Source: Candidatus Heimdallarchaeota archaeon
Lineage (GTDB): Archaea > Asgardarchaeota > Heimdallarchaeia > JABLTI01
NCBI GenBank assembly: GCA_018238155.1
Contig: JABCTZ010000022.1
Coordinates: 1-64,000, forward strand
Direction of reading: 5' to 3'
Length of the DNA: 64,000 bases
The notes beneath the pieces were generated by a model that was not told the origin of the DNA, searched no databases, and saw only the letters and a program-made list of their open reading frames with translations. Below, piece by piece: positions 2,954 to 14,411 of the stretch. Numbering within the stretch: the stretch's first letter is position 1; each line of letters begins with the position of its first letter. The translations under genes were made by a program, and so were the position numbers.

Positions 2954-4042
2954 TCACTTGCTTCGGCTCTCAAGATAATTTGAGAGTGCAACTAATTTCA
3001 TTTTTGCCTCTTCAATAAAAGGTGGTTCTGCAGTTTCTAACGAAGCAATTGCTTCATCAGTTGATTTCTTAACTAAATTCTTTGAACTTTCTAAGGCACC
3101 AGTTTCTCGATAGATATTCTTGACATCCTTTAGCTCATCCTCAGAGATATTTTCTTTACCCATTAATTTTGTAAGGCATTTCCTTTGTTTTGGGGTTGCG
3201 TTCTTCATTGCAAATATACGCAAAATTGTTTGCTTGTTTTCACGAATATCCCCACCAACAGGTTTGCCTAACTTCTCTACATCACCAAAAATGCCAAGTA
3301 TGTCATCTTGAATTTGAAATGCTTTGCCAATACCTACACAATACCCTATTAGGGCATTTGTTTGGGATTCTGTACCCTTTCCAAGAATAGCTCCAATTTC
3401 AACTGCTTTTCTGATCAAAGCACCGGTTTTCAAATAAACCATTTTCTCATAGTCTTTCTCGGTGCTTTCAGAGAGAATTGTATCACCAGTTTCAATGATT
3501 ACCCCATCAATAACATCTCGAAACGCTTCGGAGAAAGCGTGAAGGGCTTTAATAGAATATTCCGCAGGAAATCCACTTTGGATAATACTCTCAATTGCAA
3601 ATGGAAAGCATAAATCTCCTGCAAATATGGAGATAGCTTCTCCAAAATCTTGTGCTTTTATTGGAGAATTGCTTTTCTTCTCTTTGTAGAGATTTCTAAA
3701 AATTACGTGGTAAGATGGTTTTCCTCTACGTGTTTCATCTTTATCGATAACATCATCATGTAAAAGGGAACCATTATGAAGTAGCTCAATTGCTAGTGAA
3801 GCTCGAATAATATTTCCATCAGCAGGATTACCTCCTACAGCATCAAATGCGGTTGTAACTAGAAAAGACCGAATCCTTTTCCCGCCATTATTCAAATAAT
3901 CAACAAATTCCCGATAGAAAACATCCCCAAAAGCTCCTAAATCTATTTTATTCACACCTTGTTCTTTAAACATTGCTTGAAGCTCATCATCGACTTTCTG
4001 AATGTTTTCCAAAAGGGCAAGTTTTATATCCATCAAAATCAC
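2954..4042 (-). CDS. Polyprenyl synthetase (geranylgeranyl diphosphate synthase-like)
   Basis: GGKRIR, LLHDDVIDKDETRRG (FARM), KTG, FQIQDDILG (SARM). Confidence 0.93.
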   Translation of the reverse strand: MILMDIKLALLENIQKVDDELQAMFKEQGVNKIDLGAFGDVFYREFVDYLNNGGKRIRSFLVTTAFDAVGGNPADGNIIRASLAIELLHNGSLLHDDVIDKDETRRGKPSYHVIFRNLYKEKKSNSPIKAQDFGEAISIFAGDLCFPFAIESIIQSGFPAEYSIKALHAFSEAFRDVIDGVIIETGDTILSESTEKDYEKMVYLKTGALIRKAVEIGAILGKGTESQTNALIGYCVGIGKAFQIQDDILGIFGDVEKLGKPVGGDIRENKQTILRIFAMKNATPKQRKCLTKLMGKENISEDELKDVKNIYRETGALESSKNLVKKSTDEAIASLETAEPPFIEEAKMKLVALSNYLESRSK

Positions 4043-5726: not shown

Positions 5727-5963
5727 ACATACACGTTCCCTAGTAAAGATACTAGTAAAAGGTTATATAAAAAGTCGAGACTGATTGCTGAAAGTATTAG
5801 CAATCCACTCTTTTCAAGTAAGTTTAATAGGACAATGTTCAACTAGGGTTCACTGAAAGTATTATCATACTTAATTTAAATAGAAAAAGCAACAATTTTC
5901 AACAAATTAAGATTAATTATTTAAATGGTAATATTGTCTAAGTAAGTTGAAGAAGGTCTAATA

Positions 5964-6617
5964 TTGAACACAAAAAAATTCGAAGACTCAATGCAAAAAA
6001 TTAAAACGGTTTTAGAAGAAGAAAATAGGGCAAGGGAAGCAGTAATACAAAAACAAAGAAAAACGATTAGAATTTGTAGTGAAGCGATCAAATCAATACA
6101 CAGAAAAGAATTTGAGAAAGCAGATGAAAAAATAGCTGAAGCAAGAACAATGCTTAACGAAATGTTAACTCAAGTAAGTGGGATAAAAAGCCTTGAATGC
6201 TGGAGAGGGCTGACAGATGCAAAACAAGAACTCGGAGAAGCGATGTTTATTAGCTCTATTGTTCGAAATGATACCATACCATCAGTTGAAGAATGTGACA
6301 TCAATTTCTCAAGCTATATGCTAGCAGCAAGTGATACAATAGGGGAACTAAGAAGATATTTAATGGATTCATTAAGAACAAGAGATTTTGAGAATGCACA
6401 AAGAGCATTTGACTACATGGATTATCTGTATTCAGAGCTAATGACTGTTGATTATACAAAAATGTTGGTTGGACCACTAAGACCAAAAGTAGATACTGCA
6501 CGAAATTTAGTAAATAGAAGTAGAAATGATCTAATTAATGCAATGCAAGCATATGAATTATCGCAGTCAATGACAAAACTAGCAGAGAAATTAGATGACT
6601 TTAAGAAAAAAACTTAA
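5964..6617 (+). CDS. Translin family RNA-binding protein
   Basis: RE...R.C..AI..IH, QELGEA, Y....SDTIGELRR, LRPKVD.AR. Confidence 0.9.
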   Translation: MNTKKFEDSMQKIKTVLEEENRAREAVIQKQRKTIRICSEAIKSIHRKEFEKADEKIAEARTMLNEMLTQVSGIKSLECWRGLTDAKQELGEAMFISSIVRNDTIPSVEECDINFSSYMLAASDTIGELRRYLMDSLRTRDFENAQRAFDYMDYLYSELMTVDYTKMLVGPLRPKVDTARNLVNRSRNDLINAMQAYELSQSMTKLAEKLDDFKKKT

Positions 6618-6789
6618 CTATTTCTGAACGTCAAACAATTTATTTCATTCTTTTTTTTTGAGGAAATTAGAGCTTGGAATAAAAAGCAACTCAAAACATC
6701 TATCTAAGAGAATTACATATATACTTCAAATATATGTACAGTAGTAATTTTCATTATATAGAACAAACTGTATAGGAGAGGTTTCAAAT

Positions 6790-8124
6790 ATGAGTGAAAA
6801 CATAGACTGCAACCTTAGTATTGGTGTAACAGATGCAGGAAGTCTTGGACAAGATATACAAGTTGGTATGTTATCAATCGAAAAAGAGAATGAAATCAGT
6901 TTATTGGTTAATAATCTTCTTTTTTCGGATCACATAATAAGTGTATGCCCTCCAACAAACTTAAATGATAATAAACCTGAAATGAAGAAAGAAATATCAC
7001 AAAAATATCTCTCAAAAATGATTAGAAACAGAGCAGCAAAAATAGCTCTTTTCCAAATTCAGCCTTTAGAACAATTTAAGCTGTTGCAAGAGATATCAGT
7101 TTTAGAAGGACAAAGATTGCATGAAATTGGAAAGGCAATTGATTCGTCAAATTATAATTATATTGGTAAATCGCTACAACTACGATATCAATATCCAAAG
7201 GCATACGTTGATACGTTAATAAAATCGGTTTTACAATATATGGCCTTAAATTGGTTCATAAAAGAAAATAACTGTGGTTATGCACAATTATTCAAAGAAA
7301 ACATTAACAATGAAAGAAAAATGGCTATGCATATCATTGTAAATGGTGGAGCACATAATAGTTCGTATCAAGATTTACTAAATGATAATTTGAAGAATTT
7401 GTGGACAGCAATAAAAACAAAGGAATCATCAAAATTTTACTGGAATTTGATGGTAGCAACTCATGGAATTCAAAATGCATGCAACTATTATCCAGTAGTA
7501 TCCAGTATTGATTATATGGCAAAGAAGATTAATTCAAACTTAGATAATTTCATCTATTCAAGTGATACCTTCAAAGAGGTAACTGCAGAAGAAATCATCG
7601 AACAAAAAGACCATGTAGGTAAATCGCTATTGGAAGTTTTACACGAATCATATCTGAATAGAACAGGGTCAACGTTCAGACCGCCAAAATTATGGCGAAT
7701 AGGCGACTTTAGCGACCTAGGAGAATATGAACTCACTTTACCATATCTCATGTTACAAAAATCGATCCAGGAGAAAAAAATAACTGCAAGAGAAGTAGAG
7801 GATAACGTAGAAAATATTCAACGATTTTACTCGTACAATAATCCACTAGAAAGAGATGCTTTTCTTGTTGGAAAGATAGAAAAGAAAGACAAAGAAAAAA
7901 TCAATGCTCTGAAAGAGGTTGGTATACAAGGTCTAACTATTATTGATGAAGACTTAGTAGAGGAATACCGACTACTATTGAACAATATTGCAAATTATGT
8001 GCAACAAGATGAATGTATCATTACAAATGAAGACCAAAAAACAGTGCTAGAGAAAATAGCTGCAATAGAGAAAAAAGATTTCAAAAAAATAACCAAAATA
8101 AAAATGCCAAGCAATATACTCTAA
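6790..8124 (+). CDS. Hypothetical protein (444 aa)
   Basis: Long ORF with GGAG/GAGG upstream; no family confidently recognised. Confidence 0.75.
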   Translation: MSENIDCNLSIGVTDAGSLGQDIQVGMLSIEKENEISLLVNNLLFSDHIISVCPPTNLNDNKPEMKKEISQKYLSKMIRNRAAKIALFQIQPLEQFKLLQEISVLEGQRLHEIGKAIDSSNYNYIGKSLQLRYQYPKAYVDTLIKSVLQYMALNWFIKENNCGYAQLFKENINNERKMAMHIIVNGGAHNSSYQDLLNDNLKNLWTAIKTKESSKFYWNLMVATHGIQNACNYYPVVSSIDYMAKKINSNLDNFIYSSDTFKEVTAEEIIEQKDHVGKSLLEVLHESYLNRTGSTFRPPKLWRIGDFSDLGEYELTLPYLMLQKSIQEKKITAREVEDNVENIQRFYSYNNPLERDAFLVGKIEKKDKEKINALKEVGIQGLTIIDEDLVEEYRLLLNNIANYVQQDECIITNEDQKTVLEKIAAIEKKDFKKITKIKMPSNIL

Positions 8125-8176
8125 ACAGAGGAAATGAGAAAGCTACAAGAACAAGTAGAGAAGTGATTCTTTGTAG

Positions 8177-8710
8177 CTATTTATTATTTTTATCAGTAAC
8201 CATTTCTAAAACTTTATTGCGAACTTCAGAGGAGCTAATTAGATCACCACTCTCGAATTTTGGCAAACGGCACAATTGAATGTTTAAATTGTTTTCTTTA
8301 ATGAAATTTTGAAGCGGCTGGTCATTTTTGACTTGATCGTAACCAAGGACAATATAATCAGGATTTATATCAAGAATAACATCGAAGTGCTTGCTCCCTT
8401 CATTACCTAACCGAGCAAAATCAACGACGCGAAGACCACTGAGAAGACGCAATCGCTCAAGTTCATGAAAAATGGGCTTATGACCTTTGATGCGCTCAAT
8501 AGAACTATCGCAAGCAAGAACAACAACAAGCTGACATTCAGGGCAATTGGCGGTCTTACGAGCTTCCAATAAGAAACGTAAATGAGCAGGATGAATAATA
8601 TCAAAGGTACCAAAAACTAATACTCGCTTCTGATTCTTTTGAAGAGGAGGTGGAGAAACAAAATACTGTCCTTCATCGAAAGAATCATTATCATCATTAC
8701 AAGTCGTCGT
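8177..8710 (-). CDS. ribL: FAD synthase (archaeal cytidylyltransferase-like); start probably non-canonical
   Basis: The frame extends upstream of the tracked TTG at 8569 and contains RVLVFGTFDIIHPAHLRFL. Also VVVLACD, ER, PDYIVLGYDQ and ISSS. Confidence 0.85.
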   Translation of the reverse strand, partial: TTTCNDDNDSFDEGQYFVSPPPLQKNQKRVLVFGTFDIIHPAHLRFLLEARKTANCPECQLVVVLACDSSIERIKGHKPIFHELERLRLLSGLRVVDFARLGNEGSKHFDVILDINPDYIVLGYDQVKNDQPLQNFIKENNLNIQLCRLPKFESGDLISSSEVRNKVLEMVTDKNNK

Positions 8711-8807
8711 TAGTACCTCCGTTATTAAATTTCATAACGATATCTAAAACAATATCACTTTTATTTCTATTGTTAGAAAATAGGGCAGAAAAATAAAAGA
8801 GAGAAGT

Positions 8808-8833
8808 GAAATGAGGCCGTAGGGGAATTTGAA
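8808..8833 (-). repeat. Degenerate copy 5 (most distal) of the tRNA-Lys 3' end
   Basis: gaaatgaggccgtaggggaatttgaa versus gaaaatgagggcgtagggggatttgaa at 14016. Confidence 0.75.
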
Positions 8834-9025
8834 GTAGGATAAATAAAAAAATAGAAAAAAAAATTGGTGAAAGGATTGGAAACGAGAAGAGTGACCTTCC
8901 TACACCAGACTTCTAAACCTTTATGAAGAAGTGTGTACCTAAACTTCTATTTTTATTCATAATTTTTGTTCTAAACAGATTTATTACCTAGAAAATAAAT
9001 AGTAAATGAAAAGAATTAGAGCTAA

Positions 9026-9325
9026 GTGGATAGTATGAAACAATCAATAGAAGAAATCAAAAGAAGGATTTTACCAACATTACAACAATACGATGTTGTG
9101 AAAGCATCAGTCTTTGGCTCTCAAGTTAGAGGTGAGGTAGGTGCAAAAAGTGATCTTGATCTATTAGTAGAGTTCTCAGGTAAGAAAAGTTTGTTCGATT
9201 TAGTTAATTTGAAATTTGCTTTAGAAGATTTACTACAATGCAATGTTGATGTTCTAACATACAATTCCATTCATCCATTAATTAAGGATACAATTCTCAG
9301 TGAAGAAGTGGTTATTTATGGTTAA
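9026..9325 (+). CDS. Minimal nucleotidyltransferase antitoxin (MntA-like)
   Basis: VFGSQVRGE...SDLDLLVEF...VDVLT. Confidence 0.93.
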   Translation: MDSMKQSIEEIKRRILPTLQQYDVVKASVFGSQVRGEVGAKSDLDLLVEFSGKKSLFDLVNLKFALEDLLQCNVDVLTYNSIHPLIKDTILSEEVVIYG

Positions 9326-9662
9326 ACAACCAAAAATTTTCATTCAACACATGCTTGATTCCATTAATCTAATTGAGAAATACCTCAAGGGAAAAAACAA
9401 AGAAGCATTTCTTTCCTCTGAACAACTACAAGATGCGGTTATTCGAAGGCTTGAGATCATCGGTGAAGCTGTGAAAAATCTTCCTGACTCTATCATCAAA
9501 GAGTACTCTGACTTACCATGGAAGCAGATCGCGGGCATGCGTGATATTCTAATACATCAATACTTCGGAGTTGACCTTGACCTTACTTGGGAAGTTATTC
9601 AAGTTGAGTTGCCCAGTTTAAAGGCAAAATTAGACCTTCTGATTAAATCTATTAAAGATTAA
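9318..9662 (+). CDS. HEPN RNase toxin (HepT/DUF86)
   Basis: DAVIRRLEIIGEA, PWKQIAGMRDILIHQYFGVD (R-x4-H). ATG at 9318 overlaps the MNT end. Confidence 0.93.
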   Translation: MVKQPKIFIQHMLDSINLIEKYLKGKNKEAFLSSEQLQDAVIRRLEIIGEAVKNLPDSIIKEYSDLPWKQIAGMRDILIHQYFGVDLDLTWEVIQVELPSLKAKLDLLIKSIKD

Positions 9663-9782
9663 AATAAGTCATAAGCCTAAACTATCATTCTTTTACCTAA
9701 AGAAGAAGTGAGCGCATGAGCTTTAATCTATAATTAATTTAGAAAACTAATTGATGAATTTCAGCATTCTTAAAAGGAAATA

Positions 9783-9815
9783 GAAAATGAGAGCGTAGGG
9801 GGATTTGAACCCCCG
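9783..9815 (-). repeat. Copy 4 of the tRNA-Lys 3' end
   Basis: gaaaatgagagcgtagggggatttgaacccccg: 33 nt, 1 mismatch. Confidence 0.92.
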
Positions 9816-9853
9816 CATTTGTATTTCTCTATCAATTTTCATTAATAGAATAT

Positions 9854-9881
9854 CACTCGAAATATTTAATAATTTCGAGTG
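9854..9881. promoter_or_regulatory. Inverted repeat around a TATA-like box; candidate TA autorepression operator
   Basis: CACTCGAAAT-atttaata-ATTTCGAGTG, 20 bp upstream of the antitoxin ATG. Confidence 0.6.
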
Positions 9882-9901
9882 GCACAATCATACTGAGAAC
9901 A

Positions 9902-10150
9902 ATGGCAACTATAAAAGAACACGTCATAAAAATAGGCTCAAAAGGAGAAATCTTTCCACCAAAAGAAATTAGAGAGATGCTTGGATTGGTGAAAGATCAA
10001 CAAATTATCTTAACAGTTCAAAATGATCTATTAATAATAAGGAAAGTATATACAGTGGAAGAGCTTTTAGCTAAACCAGCAAAAGTGAAGATAAGTATGC
10101 ATGCATGGAAGCAATTTAGAAAACAATTAGCAAAGGATGCAGAAAAATGA
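9902..10150 (+). CDS. AbrB/MazE-type antitoxin (VapB-like)
   Basis: KIGSKGEIFPPKEIREMLGL. Confidence 0.88.
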   Translation: MATIKEHVIKIGSKGEIFPPKEIREMLGLVKDQQIILTVQNDLLIIRKVYTVEELLAKPAKVKISMHAWKQFRKQLAKDAEK

Positions 10151-10650
10151 AGAAACTGCTTCTGGATACAACATACTTCCTGCCGTTGATAGGGGTTGAG
10201 ATCGAAGGAGTTAATTCAAATTTAGTTCAAGAAATACTAAATGCAGGGGAATATACAATTTCCTTATCGGAGATTTCATTATTTGAATTAGCAGCAAAAG
10301 GAGCAAAAATAGCCAGAAAGATGGAACTGACATACCAAGATGTCCTAAGAGGAATAGATACAATAAGACTTGATAAGGAGATTAGGATAGAGAGTTGGAC
10401 ACAGAGCCCAGCAATACTTGAAACGAGTTTTAACATACGTGCATTACATTCAGATTATGCAGATTGTATCATAGTGGCAACAGCAATATGTTCAAATGAC
10501 ATTCTAGCAACATACGATAAAACGTTAATAGAAAAAATAGCAAAAGATGAAGAAATAATCGCTGAGATAGAAAAAATAAATCCGGAATTCAGAATCTGGT
10601 TAGGGGATTTGAAGAAGAAAAGTTTAGGGATAGAAGAATTAAAGAAGTGA
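10147..10650 (+). CDS. PIN-domain toxin (VapC-like)
   Basis: LLDTTY, SLFEL, DYADCIIVATA, LATYD. ATGA overlap with the antitoxin. Confidence 0.92.
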   Translation: MKKLLLDTTYFLPLIGVEIEGVNSNLVQEILNAGEYTISLSEISLFELAAKGAKIARKMELTYQDVLRGIDTIRLDKEIRIESWTQSPAILETSFNIRALHSDYADCIIVATAICSNDILATYDKTLIEKIAKDEEIIAEIEKINPEFRIWLGDLKKKSLGIEELKK

Positions 10651-10684
10651 GAAAATGAGGGCATAGGGGGACATGAACCCCCGA
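10651..10684 (-). repeat. Copy 3 of the tRNA-Lys 3' end
   Basis: gaaaatgagggcatagggggacatgaacccccga: 34 nt, 3 mismatches. Begins immediately after the PIN gene stop. Confidence 0.9.
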
Positions 10685-10712
10685 GTAACTAATACACAAA
10701 ATAAATTATTCA

Positions 10713-11102
10713 TTAGGAAAGAAATTTATTCTCTTTAAGATAATTTTTCATTGTTATAATATAGTCTTCATCTACCTTGAGTTGTTCTTCAGCATCCGCT
10801 TTTGTTAAAACCAATCCCACACTATAATCACCCTCTAACCATCTATCATATGCTTCATTCAATGCTTTACCAAATCCCTTGTCTAACTCACCAGTTTTTA
10901 TAAAATGTTGTCCGAAAAAACTGATCGTCCCTTTATGGGAGGAAGCAGTGATATTCTTAGTTAAGAGAATGGCTTCAGTGATGACAAACATAGAATAATA
11001 ACATCTGGAAACACAGCTTGCATAATCTCCATCCTCAAGGACTAGCTTTGCAGTTCTAAGAAATCTTTCAGCTTTAGTGATGAAATCAGACAAATCAAAC
11101 AA
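10713..11102 (-). CDS. HEPN domain protein (UPF0332-like)
   Basis: KAERFLRTA...SRCYYSMF...SHKG...R..GDY. Probable start is the TTG at 11102, overlapping the MNT end. Confidence 0.88.
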   Translation of the reverse strand: MFDLSDFITKAERFLRTAKLVLEDGDYASCVSRCYYSMFVITEAILLTKNITASSHKGTISFFGQHFIKTGELDKGFGKALNEAYDRWLEGDYSVGLVLTKADAEEQLKVDEDYIITMKNYLKENKFLS

Positions 11103-11418
11103 GAGAGATACCTTCCTCTTTAACAGTGAGGATAAAGGGAGAATGATAATCGTTATAGAAGGATTCAGGAACAACGATAACAGAAACTAGCTCATCATTG
11201 TCCATAAGAATCTGCCATAAAATATCACTAAGACTATTGCGAACAGTAATTCGATTAAGGTCATCAGTGATAACAACAAGGAGATCAATATCAGAATTCT
11301 TGGTAGATTCACCACGAGCTTGGGAACCATATAATAAAATTTCTTTGACCTTTAAACCATAATTTTCAAGTAAGAAAATTTTAACCGGCTCAAGGATTTT
11401 TGCTAGATGGGCATCCAA
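11095..11418 (-). CDS. Minimal nucleotidyltransferase (MNT)
   Basis: LYGSQARGE...SDIDLLVV...VKEEGI. Confidence 0.92.
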   Translation of the reverse strand: MDAHLAKILEPVKIFLLENYGLKVKEILLYGSQARGESTKNSDIDLLVVITDDLNRITVRNSLSDILWQILMDNDELVSVIVVPESFYNDYHSPFILTVKEEGISLV

Positions 11419-11514
11419 GATATATCACTCCAACAACACTCAATAATAAATAATACACAATTACTGTTTATAAAAACATTCACAAAAAATACTAAGGAAA
11501 AAAGGAAAGAGAAT

Positions 11515-11553
11515 GAAAATGAGGGCGTAGGGGGATTTGAACCCCCGACCTTT
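11515..11553 (-). repeat. Copy 2 of the tRNA-Lys 3' end (perfect, 39 nt)
   Basis: Identical to 14016-14054. Confidence 0.96.
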
Positions 11554-11601
11554 TATTCATTCATAAAGTATTCTAAAAAGAAAATGGAAGAACTTTTTTA
11601 C

Positions 11602-12105
11602 CTATTTTTGAATCTTAAAAGTACTCTTCAATTTGGCGAAAGAGTTCAAAGTAGAAAAAATCAATAAACCTTCCTTTTTCATCAGAACAGTATCTAATCG
11701 TTTAAAGTGATAATCATCAACTAAAATAACTTCACAATTAAGATTAAGGGCAGTTGCAAGATGTAACGCGTCAGAAGCGTACATATTATAATCCTTTATT
11801 ATTCGTTTTGCTAATTGAAGGTTTTCAACAGTAACCTGCTCAAGTATAAGTTTCTTTTTATTTTCGAGCCTTTTAAGATCGGTGTCAATAAATAATTGTA
11901 ATTGTTCAGCTTCAACAGCGCTTAATTCGTCTTGATTCACCCGCTTCTTTATTCCGCGAGTAATTTCCAGATGACTCCAATGAGAGCTAATACATTGAAA
12001 TTGAGTGTGAGTGAGACAGGATTCAACTAAAGAACTACCAACTTCATTATAGAACAAGTTCCAGAGAGCAGAGCTCTCTAAGTAACAATCAATCTTCCTC
12101 ATCAT
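11602..12105 (-). CDS. PIN-domain toxin (VapC-like)
   Basis: YLESSAL...E.GS...LEI...SDALHLATA...VDD. Start trimmed to the ATG at 12105/12102. Confidence 0.88.
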   Translation of the reverse strand: MMRKIDCYLESSALWNLFYNEVGSSLVESCLTHTQFQCISSHWSHLEITRGIKKRVNQDELSAVEAEQLQLFIDTDLKRLENKKKLILEQVTVENLQLAKRIIKDYNMYASDALHLATALNLNCEVILVDDYHFKRLDTVLMKKEGLLIFSTLNSFAKLKSTFKIQK

Positions 12106-12325
12106 GAAGAGCCTCAAGACCTTGCAGCTTTTGTTGCTTTTTCGAAAAATAAGCTCGTACCTCGGATCGAGTTTTCCAGGGTAAGGATTTGAGCTTTTCC
12201 TCTTGCATGAGCTCATAAAGACCAGCTTTAAGAGCATCACTAATTGAAGAGTAGCGACCTTTCGCTATCAATGTTTCAAGGAATTTCTTCTCCTCATCAT
12301 TTAATCGGACTGAAGCAACCTCCAT
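12089..12325 (-). CDS. Ribbon-helix-helix antitoxin
   Basis: SVRLNDEEKKFLETLIAKGRYSSISDALKAGL. Confidence 0.88.
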   Translation of the reverse strand: MEVASVRLNDEEKKFLETLIAKGRYSSISDALKAGLYELMQEEKLKSLPWKTRSEVRAYFSKKQQKLQGLEALHDEED

Positions 12326-12436
12326 AGCATCACAACAAAAGAATAAACAGTACTGTATACTAAATACATAGCTGTAAACAAATAAATTCTTTTCGTTCGT
12401 TCTATATTTAATAAAGAAAAAATACTAAGAGAAATA

Positions 12437-12473
12437 GAAAATGAGTGCGTAGGGGGATTTGAACCCCCGACCT
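12437..12473 (-). repeat. Copy 1 of the tRNA-Lys 3' end
   Basis: gaaaatgagtgcgtagggggatttgaacccccgacct: 37 nt, 1 mismatch. Confidence 0.94.
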
Positions 12474-12917
12474 AAGATAAAAATTTGTGATAGTTGTTTT
12501 TTTTTTAAATTTAGATTATTAATCCCCATTCATCATCATAGAAAGATATTATTTTAAAAACTCATTTTAAATTGACAGTGAAGGACAGCTAAATTCAGGG
12601 GAAGTGAATAATGAAAGAAAGAATAGTAACGAAAGGAAACAGCCACTTGCCAAAAATAAAAAAAAGGATACAAGCTAATTATAAATCATACACATCCACA
12701 CCGTTTTCACTGTCATTTGCTGCTTTTGCACAGAGCTCTTTCACAGTTCTCATAGAAAAATATATGAGTTTGCTAGAGCTCCAATCATTCTTGTGGTGAA
12801 AGCTTTTTAATCATATTTAGTTTTAACCAAATTAAGTAGAGAAGATTATTATCAAAGTGGATTTACTTCACAAAAGTTTGAAAAACGGTATTTGTATATC
12901 GAGAGAAGGAATACAGG

Positions 12918-13886
12918 ATGAAAAAGCGAAGAAAAATAATAGAACTATTTTCCTTGTTTGTAATTCTCATATTACTTTTTGGGTTTCCAACTTACGTTCT
13001 CATTACTAATAATTCAGAAGACATCAAACATGAGACCAACAGATGGGCAATAATTGAGGATTACGATGGAAATCAGTTAGCAATTGACGCATTCAATAGT
13101 AGTATTTGGAATGAGTTACGAAAAGATTGGAAAGAGTTACGAAAGGATTCTGGAACGAATCTCAGTGCTCCAATGTTTATATTTGGACTTGTTGTATCTT
13201 ATGATAACTCGTGGCAGTTTCGATTTGAACCTTCAACAGTGTCTTCTACTATAGGGTATATTAAAGAACCCTCATATACAATTATCGAAATTGCAAATAA
13301 CTTGGAATGGCATTTATCTCAAAGGATTCCTATTGAAATAGAGTCTATTCGATTTTTTAATTTTCAAAATGCTGGAATGGTTATACTAATTATTGATGTG
13401 ATAGTATCCATTGTATCAATAATAACGTTCAGTTTGTATTTATTTTCAAAAAGAGAGAGAAGAAGATATAAAACGATAAAAGAAGCACTATTGGTTGCTA
13501 AGGAAACTCCAGAAGAAATCTCTTTTGCCTTGCTCTCACAAAAAGTAGATTTGAAACAAAAACAAATAGAGCACTTGATAAAAAAGAAAAATCTGAAAGA
13601 AGACCTGGGTTTACAAATCAACGATGACCGTATTCAATTTAAGGATTTGATTTATTCAAAAAGTATCTCCCAGATAGAAGAACAGTTGAGTAATTTCCTT
13701 CAAGTATCAATTAATCAACTTACACTTGAACACTATAGTAAGCTCTTTCAGTTTAAAAATGAGTTACAGGAAGCGTTAGCATATTTTGAAGAGTCTTTCA
13801 ATATAGAAAAACAAAAGCAAATTGAAACAAAAATCGAAGTGATAACGAATCTTCTGGAAAGTATCACATTAGATGATTTTAAATGA
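12918..13886 (+). CDS. Hypothetical two-TM membrane protein with an extracellular domain and a helical cytoplasmic domain
   Basis: Hydrophobic stretches at aa ~8-30 and ~153-176. Confidence 0.75.
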   Translation: MKKRRKIIELFSLFVILILLFGFPTYVLITNNSEDIKHETNRWAIIEDYDGNQLAIDAFNSSIWNELRKDWKELRKDSGTNLSAPMFIFGLVVSYDNSWQFRFEPSTVSSTIGYIKEPSYTIIEIANNLEWHLSQRIPIEIESIRFFNFQNAGMVILIIDVIVSIVSIITFSLYLFSKRERRRYKTIKEALLVAKETPEEISFALLSQKVDLKQKQIEHLIKKKNLKEDLGLQINDDRIQFKDLIYSKSISQIEEQLSNFLQVSINQLTLEHYSKLFQFKNELQEALAYFEESFNIEKQKQIETKIEVITNLLESITLDDFK

Positions 13887-14022
13887 AGAGTTGAATAAGC
13901 CACACACACGCACCATTCTACGATATGGAAAATGGAGTGTTCATAGTAGTAAATGGAGAGGACAGAAATGAGCCAATAAAAATGAAAAGATGGATGAATA
14001 AAGAAAAGAAAAAAGGAAAATG

Positions 14023-14158
14023 AGGGCGTAGGGGGATTTGAACCCCCGACCTTTATCCGATAAGAGAGTACTTCTCTTTCTCTAAGGATGTTTCCGATTG
14101 GAGATTTCTTCTCTTTTTCTTAAGAGTCCTCCGCTCTGCCTGTCTGAGCCATACGCCC
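14023..14158 (-). tRNA. tRNA-Lys(CTT) with two 31-nt introns (37/38: 14090-14120; 43/44: 14053-14083)
   Basis: Acceptor GGGCGTA/TACGCCC, D arm GCTC/GAGC, anticodon arm GAGGA-CT-CTT-A|A-TCCTT, variable loop AGGTC, T arm GGGGG-TTCAAAT-CCCCC. Both introns have BHB-like junctions. Confidence 0.92.
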
Positions 14159-14411
14159 GTGTTTTTTTCTGTATTTCTTTTGCTGTTTCTTTTATTTTTT
14201 AAATGTTCCCTTTGTTAGTATTTTTCTTTTTTTGTTTCCTTTTCTTCCATCTATCTCCTCATTTTTATTTAGTCTTCTCTCTCTTCACTATCTAATACAC
14301 TGAATTTTCCTTAATTTATTTAATAATAAGCTGTCAATTATTGACAAGATTAATACTTCCATTCCAAGAGTTTTTTTAAGTAAAAAACGAATAGTATTAC
14401 TGTGAGGATAT

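Follow-up and report, generated by a model that had tools for sequence, protein, structure and literature searches.

The window analyzed here, the first 64 kb of a 120-kb contig (JABCTZ010000022.1, assembly GCA_018238155.1) of Candidatus Heimdallarchaeota archaeon, carries next to a tRNA-Lys(CTT) gene a tandem array of small toxin-antitoxin (TA) units separated by direct copies of the 3' end of that gene. The source genome (G000) is metagenome-derived and comprises 4.08 Mb with 33% G+C, at 90.7% completeness; its Roadblock/LC7 and Translin genes and its numerous tRNAs with introns suggest an Asgard-type archaeon. The array probably arose as TA mini-elements lacking an integrase accumulated and were shuffled site-specifically at an attachment (att) site in the tRNA gene, in a manner resembling the cis-mobilizable elements (CIMEs) of bacteria. 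Natural variants of the array in related strains and metagenomes include re-ordered and hybrid junctions, which imply that the units were already small when they recombined.

The repeat search discloses one repeat family of six copies in a single orientation, with start-to-start spacings of 976, 868, 864, 922, and 1579 nucleotides (nt), confirming the positions and spacings given in an earlier note on this DNA. As in tRNA-targeted islands, an intact target tRNA stands at one end and five displaced direct copies of its 3' segment follow (Table 1). A 24-nt att core, searched with up to three mismatches, finds six matches in G000, five at the locus and one in an unrelated tRNA on contig C17, and the reversed core, used as a control, finds none in the same genome; att copy 5 lies outside the core matches and is seen by repeat search and alignment. 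In copies 1-4, ~31-41 nt are shared with the tRNA, beginning in the variable loop or T stem and taking in the acceptor strand and the TCATTTTC trailer. The right-hand limit is common to all copies, comprising the acceptor strand and TCATTTTC followed by a T/C-rich tract, whereas the left-hand limit varies from the anticodon-stem/variable-loop junction (copy 1) to the T loop only (copy 5). The earlier note held the most distal copy to be the most decayed; copy 5 indeed matches only from the T loop on, but the mismatches of the copies to the tRNA are not ordered by distance, and the 5' half of copy 5 is more likely to stem from the att arm of the cassette itself than from decay in place. Exact searches with 21-22 nt of att in genome, metagenome, and viral contigs found no plasmid or virus carrying the site, and matched only a Thermoplasmatota tRNA (L027, unrelated), a phage tRNA (L080), and a relative with a canonical single-intron tRNA-Lys (L028).

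Four of the five intervals, here called cassettes 2-5, each contain one intact type II TA pair according to Pfam, namely (i) RHH-PIN, (ii) MNT-HEPN, (iii) AbrB-PIN, and (iv) MNT-HepT, with the MNT GSx..DxD and HepT Rx4H motifs intact. The pairs are oriented two each way, with 24-180 nt of non-coding DNA at their ends, and a palindromic operator lies upstream of the cassette 4 genes, whose AbrB/MazE match to PF04014 is below the curated cut-off (22.3 vs 24.7 bits). The PIN gene of cassette 2 has a longer open reading frame (ORF) beginning at 12240, and gene calls for cassette 2 are available on a twin contig too. Cassettes 2-5 are free of pseudogene debris and integrase fragments, and Pfam detects no integrase or fragment of one in any interval, small ORFs across the repeats included, so that both the mixed orientations and the lack of integrases reported earlier hold. 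Retaining both att sites without integration or transfer genes, these units correspond to CIMEs as defined in bacteria, namely elements that have lost their integration genes and kept both att sites, described as decay products of elements that are either integrative and conjugative (ICEs) or integrative and mobilizable (IMEs) (PMC5704250).

The description of exactly one unit per interval is accurate for the four TA intervals and fails for interval 1, which pairs a predicted membrane protein with the stump of a Metallophos gene that translates into the C-terminal part of the protein. Interval 1 represents a degraded portion of a larger island, because the Metallophos gene is intact in relatives and abuts the tRNA or an att there. 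The 322-amino-acid (aa) membrane protein has a paralogue at C19:68709-69659 (71% aa identity), and its gene contains a 21-nt tandem duplication at 13106-13147 that repeats the peptide WxELRKD.

Table 1. Features of the tRNA-Lys(CTT) array, its flanks, and arrays bounded by the second repeat (window coordinates unless a contig is named)
Feature	Position	Strand	Description
Core flank, 444-aa protein	6790-8124	+	syntenic in 10/10 congeners
Core flank, cytidylyltransferase-like protein	8177-8569	-	syntenic in 10/10 congeners
att copy 5	8808..8843	-	tRNA match only in T loop and 3' half
Cassette 5	8844..9782	+	MNT 9026-9325 and HepT 9300-9662; PF18765, PF01934
Second-repeat copy in cassette 5	8886-8935	-	upstream of MNT; aligned to G005 copies, score 58 vs shuffle maximum 26
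att copy 4	9783..9816	-	1 mismatch
Cassette 4	9817..10650	+	AbrB/MazE-like antitoxin 9902-10150 and PIN toxin 10147-10650; PF04014, PF01850
att copy 3	10651..10685	-	3 mismatches
Cassette 3	10686..11514	-	MNT nucleotidyltransferase 11418-11095 and HEPN 11102-10713; PF01909/PF18765, PF05168
att copy 2	11515..11551	-	core identical to tRNA copy (0 mismatches)
Cassette 2	11552..12436	-	RHH/ParD-like antitoxin 12325-12089 and PIN toxin 12105-11602; PF03693, PF01850
att copy 1	12437..12473	-	1 mismatch in 24-nt core
Interval 1	12474..14015	.	322-aa predicted membrane protein and Metallophos 3'-end remnant; no TA cassette
322-aa predicted membrane protein	12918-13886	+	interval 1; no Pfam hit
Metallophos 3'-end remnant, 110 nt	13895-14005	+	tblastn with G005 Metallophos protein; directly beside tRNA
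Reference att in and just after tRNA	14016..14052	-	variable loop, T arm, acceptor 3' strand, trailer TCATTTTC
tRNA-Lys(CTT) gene	14023..14158	-	Rfam RF00005, 45.5 bits, with alignment
Other second-repeat array	G005:C38 (L066:2500-7500)		
Other second-repeat array	G005:C35 (L065:1000-8400)		
Other second-repeat array	G009:C102 (L070:1376-2301)		

Core genes resume beyond the last copy, as the earlier note stated, in a block comprising genes for polyprenyl synthase, GDPD, Roadblock, Translin, the 444-aa protein, and the cytidylyltransferase, syntenic in all ten congeners, which allows the same site to be compared across the genus. The site is empty in G007, G008, G002, and probably G003 (61-69% aa identity in the 444-aa protein), where 0.5-0.65 kb of cassette-free DNA separates tRNA-Lys(CTT) from the cytidylyltransferase gene. 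The nearest relatives, G001 and G009 (92% aa identity in the same protein), are different from each other: G001 displays att copy 5 and cassette 5 beside the core, as G000 does, whereas G009 lacks cassettes 3-5 and displays a single att beside the core; ahead of this att stand the antitoxin gene of cassette 2 and a PIN gene of which only the first 70 codons are left. Occupation by a larger element is seen in G005, with a 14-kb island flanked by a tRNA-Lys-like copy on one side and an old 3' fragment on the other, encoding Metallophos, DEAD/Cas3-like helicase, NERD, and TPR proteins and no integrase detectable by Pfam. Single-function cassettes vary between strains, as in integron-like arrays, and the comparison across relatives that had been proposed as a check discloses cassette gain, loss, and re-ordering, always at the repeat.

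The G004 genome carries an AbrB-PIN pair 60-74% identical to that of cassette 4, located between two att copies 856 nt apart (868 nt in G000), with the PIN stop codon adjoining att in both genomes. Over 25 nt the two G004 att copies show no difference, and both have the tRNA-Lys sequence variant of their own species group. Cassette 5 provides a second kind of evidence: the core flank of G000 and G001 differs at ~10 positions per 100 nt, and from ~8872, just inside the cassette, the divergence falls to ~2 per 100 nt, non-coding DNA included, and does not rise again before the G001 contig ends. Accordingly, the cassette 5 TA genes are 98.3-98.6% identical between the two genomes, compared to 89-91% for the flank.

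Rearranged junctions were found in metagenomic contigs. The sequencing runs X1-X5 were consulted as assembled contigs only, covering <20% of the sampled words each, and array parts uncovered in them are no evidence of absence. In a contig of run X1, an att links the HEPN end of cassette 3 to the point where cassette 2 begins, a joint that represents either the G000 order reversed or a circle junction between copies 1 and 3. A contig of run X5 leads from cassette 4 into an att and skips cassette 3 (860 nt) exactly, joining 10647 to 11508. The JGI contig Ga0366824_1132321 (L096; 3.8 kb), whose cassettes 4 and 5 are 95.9% identical to those of G000, has the order cassette 4, att copy 4, cassette 5, a hybrid att, and the first 120 nt of cassette 3. 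By alignment, the hybrid att follows copy 5 in its left half and left flank and copy 2 in its right half and right flank, with the switch point inside the T-loop heptamer TTCAAAT; copies 5 and 2 share only 7-8-base identical runs. To judge from these flanks, the hybrid is the predicted circle-junction product of copy 2 and copy 5. The att of G009, with copy-2 type flank on the left and core on the right, would fit the chromosomal product of the deletion reciprocal to the L096 circle type. The L096 and G009 structures equally fit a three-cassette circle integrating into a G009-like site, and the events may have run in either direction.

The surroundings of these junctions show further rearrangement. 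In L096, the neighbors of cassettes 4 and 5 are two FtsX-like genes (L096:1-1449, 3485-3813), one on each side, and not the core flank; the cassette 4 PIN gene is interrupted at window position 10550, where it joins a flank also seen beside an att fragment in G009:C41 (L069:1204-4086). That same flank borders an att and cassette 3 in run X1.

An alternative that we regard as unlikely explains the array by decay only, with five integrase-bearing islands inserted in succession and each shrunk to a TA pair with its att copies, the small units themselves never having moved. The array lacks an integrase, interval 1 holds a gene stump and looks like an island remnant, the 14-kb island of G005 occupies the same site, islands of 3-21 kb occur at tRNA-Ala in G000, and a route of decay followed by accretion is documented for bacterial CIMEs (PMC5704250). 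This scheme is difficult to reconcile with four of four TA intervals being debris-free, and with a G004 cassette that keeps the same limits and length despite a 26-40% protein difference, its identical att pair suggesting a recent event. It would also leave the low divergence of cassette 5 relative to its flank unexplained, and the re-ordered and hybrid junctions require recombination of units that were already small. The earlier contention that the intervals are hard to explain as random remnants of larger islands is upheld by the G004 cassette with its identical att pair and by cassette 5, ~4 times less diverged than its flank, and is contradicted by interval 1, a decayed island.

General homologous recombination between the ~40-nt repeats, imported DNA included and with no dedicated recombinase, is likewise improbable in our judgment, even though no linked recombinase was found and near identity over 30-40 nt is common to the tRNA and copies 1, 2, and 4. 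Very short homology suffices for recombination in some archaea, which also speaks for such a process. The L096 hybrid, however, joins copies 5 and 2, and these short runs mean that a site-specific enzyme suits the event better than homologous recombination, the more so with a switch in the T loop between inverted arms. In addition, the left limits differ by cassette, as att arms would, and homologous recombination leaves the first capture of a TA pair together with an att unexplained.

It is very unlikely that the locus is a true integron or a cluster of attC sites lacking an integron integrase (CALIN), in which an IntI-type integrase would act on the tRNA fragment as a folded attC. Integrons, mostly CALINs, are reported to be enriched in Asgard archaea, and TA modules are their most common annotated cargo; like the present array, they comprise single-function cassettes with recombination sites between them, prominent TA content, re-ordering, and often no integrase close by, and their circle excision and exchange would have a counterpart here (PMC9668308). 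The genus contains other TA-rich repeat-bounded arrays, and cassette 5 carries one such repeat. Compared to integrons, the boundary here is a double-strand-type tRNA att formed by the T arm and acceptor strand without R''/R' boxes, whose folding gives only the T-arm stem, plus a stem in the flank of copy 2, and no attC-type hairpin. The array ends at a tRNA gene instead of an intI/attI platform with a cassette promoter (Pc), no integrase lies near it within the window, and the cassettes are self-expressed from their own operators in both orientations. The integron likeness drawn in the earlier note therefore extends to behavior and not to construction, and its comparison with a CRISPR array has no basis.

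An assembly artefact, with unrelated TA loci stitched together at short repeats, is hardly credible: the data come from metagenome assemblies throughout, the runs examined contain several coexisting strains, and the G001 and G009 contigs end at or near att copies, but the repeats, at ~40 nt, are shorter than reads, two public assemblies keep the order over 7.7 kb and 2.0 kb (JABCTY010000037.1 of GCA_018238125.1, 7,774 nt, equal to window 5911-13595 with one mismatch; JABCUA010000488.1 of GCA_018238085.1, equal to window 11190-13208 with two mismatches), contigs of the unrelated runs X1 and X4 span the core, att copy 5, and cassette 5, and L096 spans cassette 5, att copy 4, and cassette 4. The two twin assemblies check the assembly, yet they are not independent biology and may derive from the same population; an 89-nt tail at the end of JABCTY010000037.1, which matches nothing, was ignored as a likely chimeric contig end.

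According to the mechanism proposed for site-specific accretion and shuffling, the tRNA-Lys(CTT) 3' end would serve as att for site-specific recombination, and non-autonomous elements, each comprising one promoter-bearing type II TA operon and one att, would accumulate in tandem beside the remnant of a larger island. Each integration would regenerate the tRNA 3' end from the element and displace the previous end as a direct repeat, following the textbook scheme of integrase-mediated insertion into a tRNA gene, in which the element regenerates the 3' end. In a displaced copy, the left side would be the arm of the element and the right side the previous tRNA end, and the variable left limits, as well as the match of copy 5 from the T loop on, would arise because the left half comes from the arm of the element. 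Any two repeats could recombine again, so that single cassettes or blocks would be excised as circles, lost, re-inserted, and re-ordered. The crossover would fall in or next to the 7-nt T loop TTCAAAT, between the inverted G5/C5 arms of the T stem, which corresponds to the layout of a tyrosine-recombinase core site; the T loop is among the sublocations used by tRNA-targeting integrases. Because the array encodes no recombinase, the enzyme would act in trans, encoded either on the chromosome or on a mobile element in transit, and possibly resides on an unbinned plasmid or virus. Addiction, by which the loss of a TA module is penalized, is a known behavior of such modules; it would probably account for the retention of the putatively active TA pairs and may stabilize the locus. 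The evidence supports iterative insertion at the tRNA 3' end and the accompanying duplication of att, as first proposed from the DNA, while strict polarity is not demonstrated: the order differs between strains, blocks of two to three cassettes recombine at att copies inside the array, and the mismatches do not follow distance.

Several observations weigh against this mechanism. No free circle was seen among the contigs; the circle-type junctions occur in linear contigs only, L096 running on into other genes, and could represent re-inserted or tandem copies. Every relative is a metagenome bin and several contigs are interrupted at the array, so that some orders could mix strains. Interval 1 and the larger islands at tRNA-Lys and tRNA-Ala indicate that big elements decay here too, and TA homologues in other genera (G007:C79, G030, G037, G049, G012, G010) have neither a tRNA-Lys fragment nor a flanking direct repeat. 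Finally, no recombinase is linked to the array, and G000, at its stated completeness, has two tyrosine-recombinase candidates only: (i) an Xer-like protein of 351 aa on C8 (C8:49852-50907), with a weak, below-cut-off match to the XerA/'integron integrase' model, the same match that would favor an integron, and (ii) a protein of 524 aa on C19 (C19:71085-72659), 57 kb from the array, with a weak Phage_integrase match. The 524-aa candidate and its eight homologues in the genus show a patchy distribution, with no tRNA-like fragment within ~1.5 kb of any of them. No serine recombinase was found in G000, where only a 22-residue fragment of a Y1 transposase is present; the SSV-type integrase family PF16795 has no match in that genome, the ORFs overlapping the repeats lack family matches, and no Phage_integrase or resolvase match occurs in any interval or repeat-spanning small ORF, so that no unit carries an integrase of its own.

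The paralogue of the interval 1 membrane protein gene lies two genes from the 524-aa candidate (C19:68709-72659; L029:4706-8659), a suggestive arrangement with no link established, and a 73% identical homologue in G010 shares a contig with the G010 core flank.

A second direct repeat, unrelated to att, bounds single TA pairs and single genes as units of 0.5-2.6 kb; it has a core of ~70 nt, is conserved over up to ~95 nt, and occurs in at least 18 copies in G000. Homologues of cassettes 3 and 5 in G005 and G009 form ~0.86-kb units between copies of this repeat, in arrays that also hold HicAB, a PIN-RHH pair, a short-chain dehydrogenase, and DUF362, and the array on G000 contig C33 (C33:1-10000, L090) comprises VapBC, DUF433-DUF5615, MNT-HEPN, TumE, ParE, and a GNAT acetyltransferase. 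No recombinase lies beside the second-repeat arrays examined. The second repeat was considered as an attC and rejected, with no Rfam match, no fold beyond that of shuffled sequences, and only a 5-bp hairpin conserved in 25 aligned copies. Because the same TA families form ~0.86-kb units in this second system, the uniform ~0.9-kb size of the cassettes is simply the size of a TA operon, and the argument that the earlier note built on uniform size loses its force; TA units of the genus occur under two kinds of boundary. More speculatively, the genus may operate an integron-free cassette exchange, in which the tRNA 3' end is both docking site and universal boundary, a recombinase in trans excises minimal self-expressed TA cassettes, alone or as blocks, reshuffles them, and exchanges them horizontally, and cargo is traded with the ~95-nt-repeat arrays. 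This wider proposal is tentative and on balance doubtful; if true, it would supply a concrete mechanism for TA operons moving as units.

Regarding known systems, the closest parallels are the IME/ICE/CIME tandems at streptococcal tRNA-Lys(CTT) genes, which share (i) the tRNA 3' target with a regenerated gene and a displaced fragment and (ii) the persistence of integrase-less, att-flanked units; the streptococcal units can recombine together with their neighbors and show complex block excision, as the present ones would (PMC5704250). Compared to these CIMEs, the units described here consist of one TA operon of 0.86-0.98 kb, at least four in a row, in an archaeal (Asgard-type) host, with no helper element or integrase found in G000, and they appear to spread in minimal form. 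The tycheposons of Prochlorococcus also insert successively at tRNA genes, pushing older elements inward and leaving partial tRNAs as separators, with degenerate remnants, extra partial tRNAs, and populations heterogeneous for excision and tandem junctions (10.1101/2020.12.28.424599); they carry their own tyrosine recombinase, replication genes, and several kb of cargo, whereas the present units carry neither recombinase nor replication genes. For archaeal viruses and plasmids with SSV- and pNOB8-type integrases, tRNA genes are reported to be the preferred targets, and the remnants of many integrations persist beside these genes in archaeal chromosomes (PMC7253208; PMC3718332). No split integrase halves flank the present units, which are far smaller than any described element. 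The mobility of Sulfolobus vapBC genes has been attributed to flanking insertion sequence (IS) elements (PMC3718332) and not to tRNA att sites, and tRNA-integrating elements are known in Asgard archaea. It is already established that elements accrete in tandem at tRNA 3' ends, the older ones lying further in and partial tRNAs separating them; what differs here is the reduction to single TA operons, four in a row, and the evidence for their spread and reshuffling in minimal form. The literature searched contains no description of tRNA-anchored TA cassette arrays, which is no proof of novelty.

TA operons are regarded as mobile selfish modules, yet the movement of a bare two-gene module is rarely visible outside integrons, and the locus displays minimal TA units with a defined recombination site. 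The natural variants resemble both products of one excision and place the crossover within 7 nt, which renders the question testable. The array extends integrase-less tandem accretion at tRNA genes from bacteria to the archaeal lineage closest to eukaryotes, and suggests that tRNA hotspots can behave like integrons without being integrons.

The tRNA-Lys(CTT) gene itself, in a genome with many intron-bearing tRNAs, contains a canonical intron at ~14089-14118 and a second insert of 31 nt (14053-14083, minus strand), which separates the anticodon stem from the variable loop and sits at the left boundary of the att segment. The repeat search identifies the insert as a diverged copy of the neighboring canonical intron (79% alike); it is missing from related contigs of run X5, and contigs of run X4 lack both inserts. 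ARAGORN detects no tRNA in the window at default settings and, with introns allowed, fuses the tRNA 5' half to att copy 2 across a '2549-nt intron', so that the Rfam call was preferred.

In G005, the 5' half of a tRNA-Lys with part of its intron (L022:14110-14172, minus strand) lies inverted ~130 nt from the old 3' fragment (14303-14336, plus strand), whose acceptor strand is mismatched to it. The tRNA-Lys-like copy 14 kb away (L022:53-170) has a 31-nt insert in the T loop, and a similar insert is present in the att fragment of G009:C41.

The 3' end of the Metallophos gene repeatedly abuts or overlaps a tRNA 3' end, as observed at tRNA-Lys or an att fragment in G005 (L022:117-809) and G009 (L069:4445-4942), and the gene occupies the usual position of an island integrase, with a DEAD/Cas3-like helicase gene next to it in G005. 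In G000, a paralogue (C11:89737-90375) adjoins tRNA-Ala(TGC), where a 25-kb stretch delimited by tRNA-Ala fragments ends. Such 3'-end fragments are found downstream of tRNA-Ala genes in G000 at spacings of 3-21 kb (C11:65386, 69369; C43:131, 3023; C36:814, 3927; C17:159058; C21:872), which suggests that tRNA-Ala is a second integration hotspot, used by larger islands; the genes between the fragments include those for a UvrD helicase, an ArdC-N domain protein, and FtsX-like and TPR proteins.

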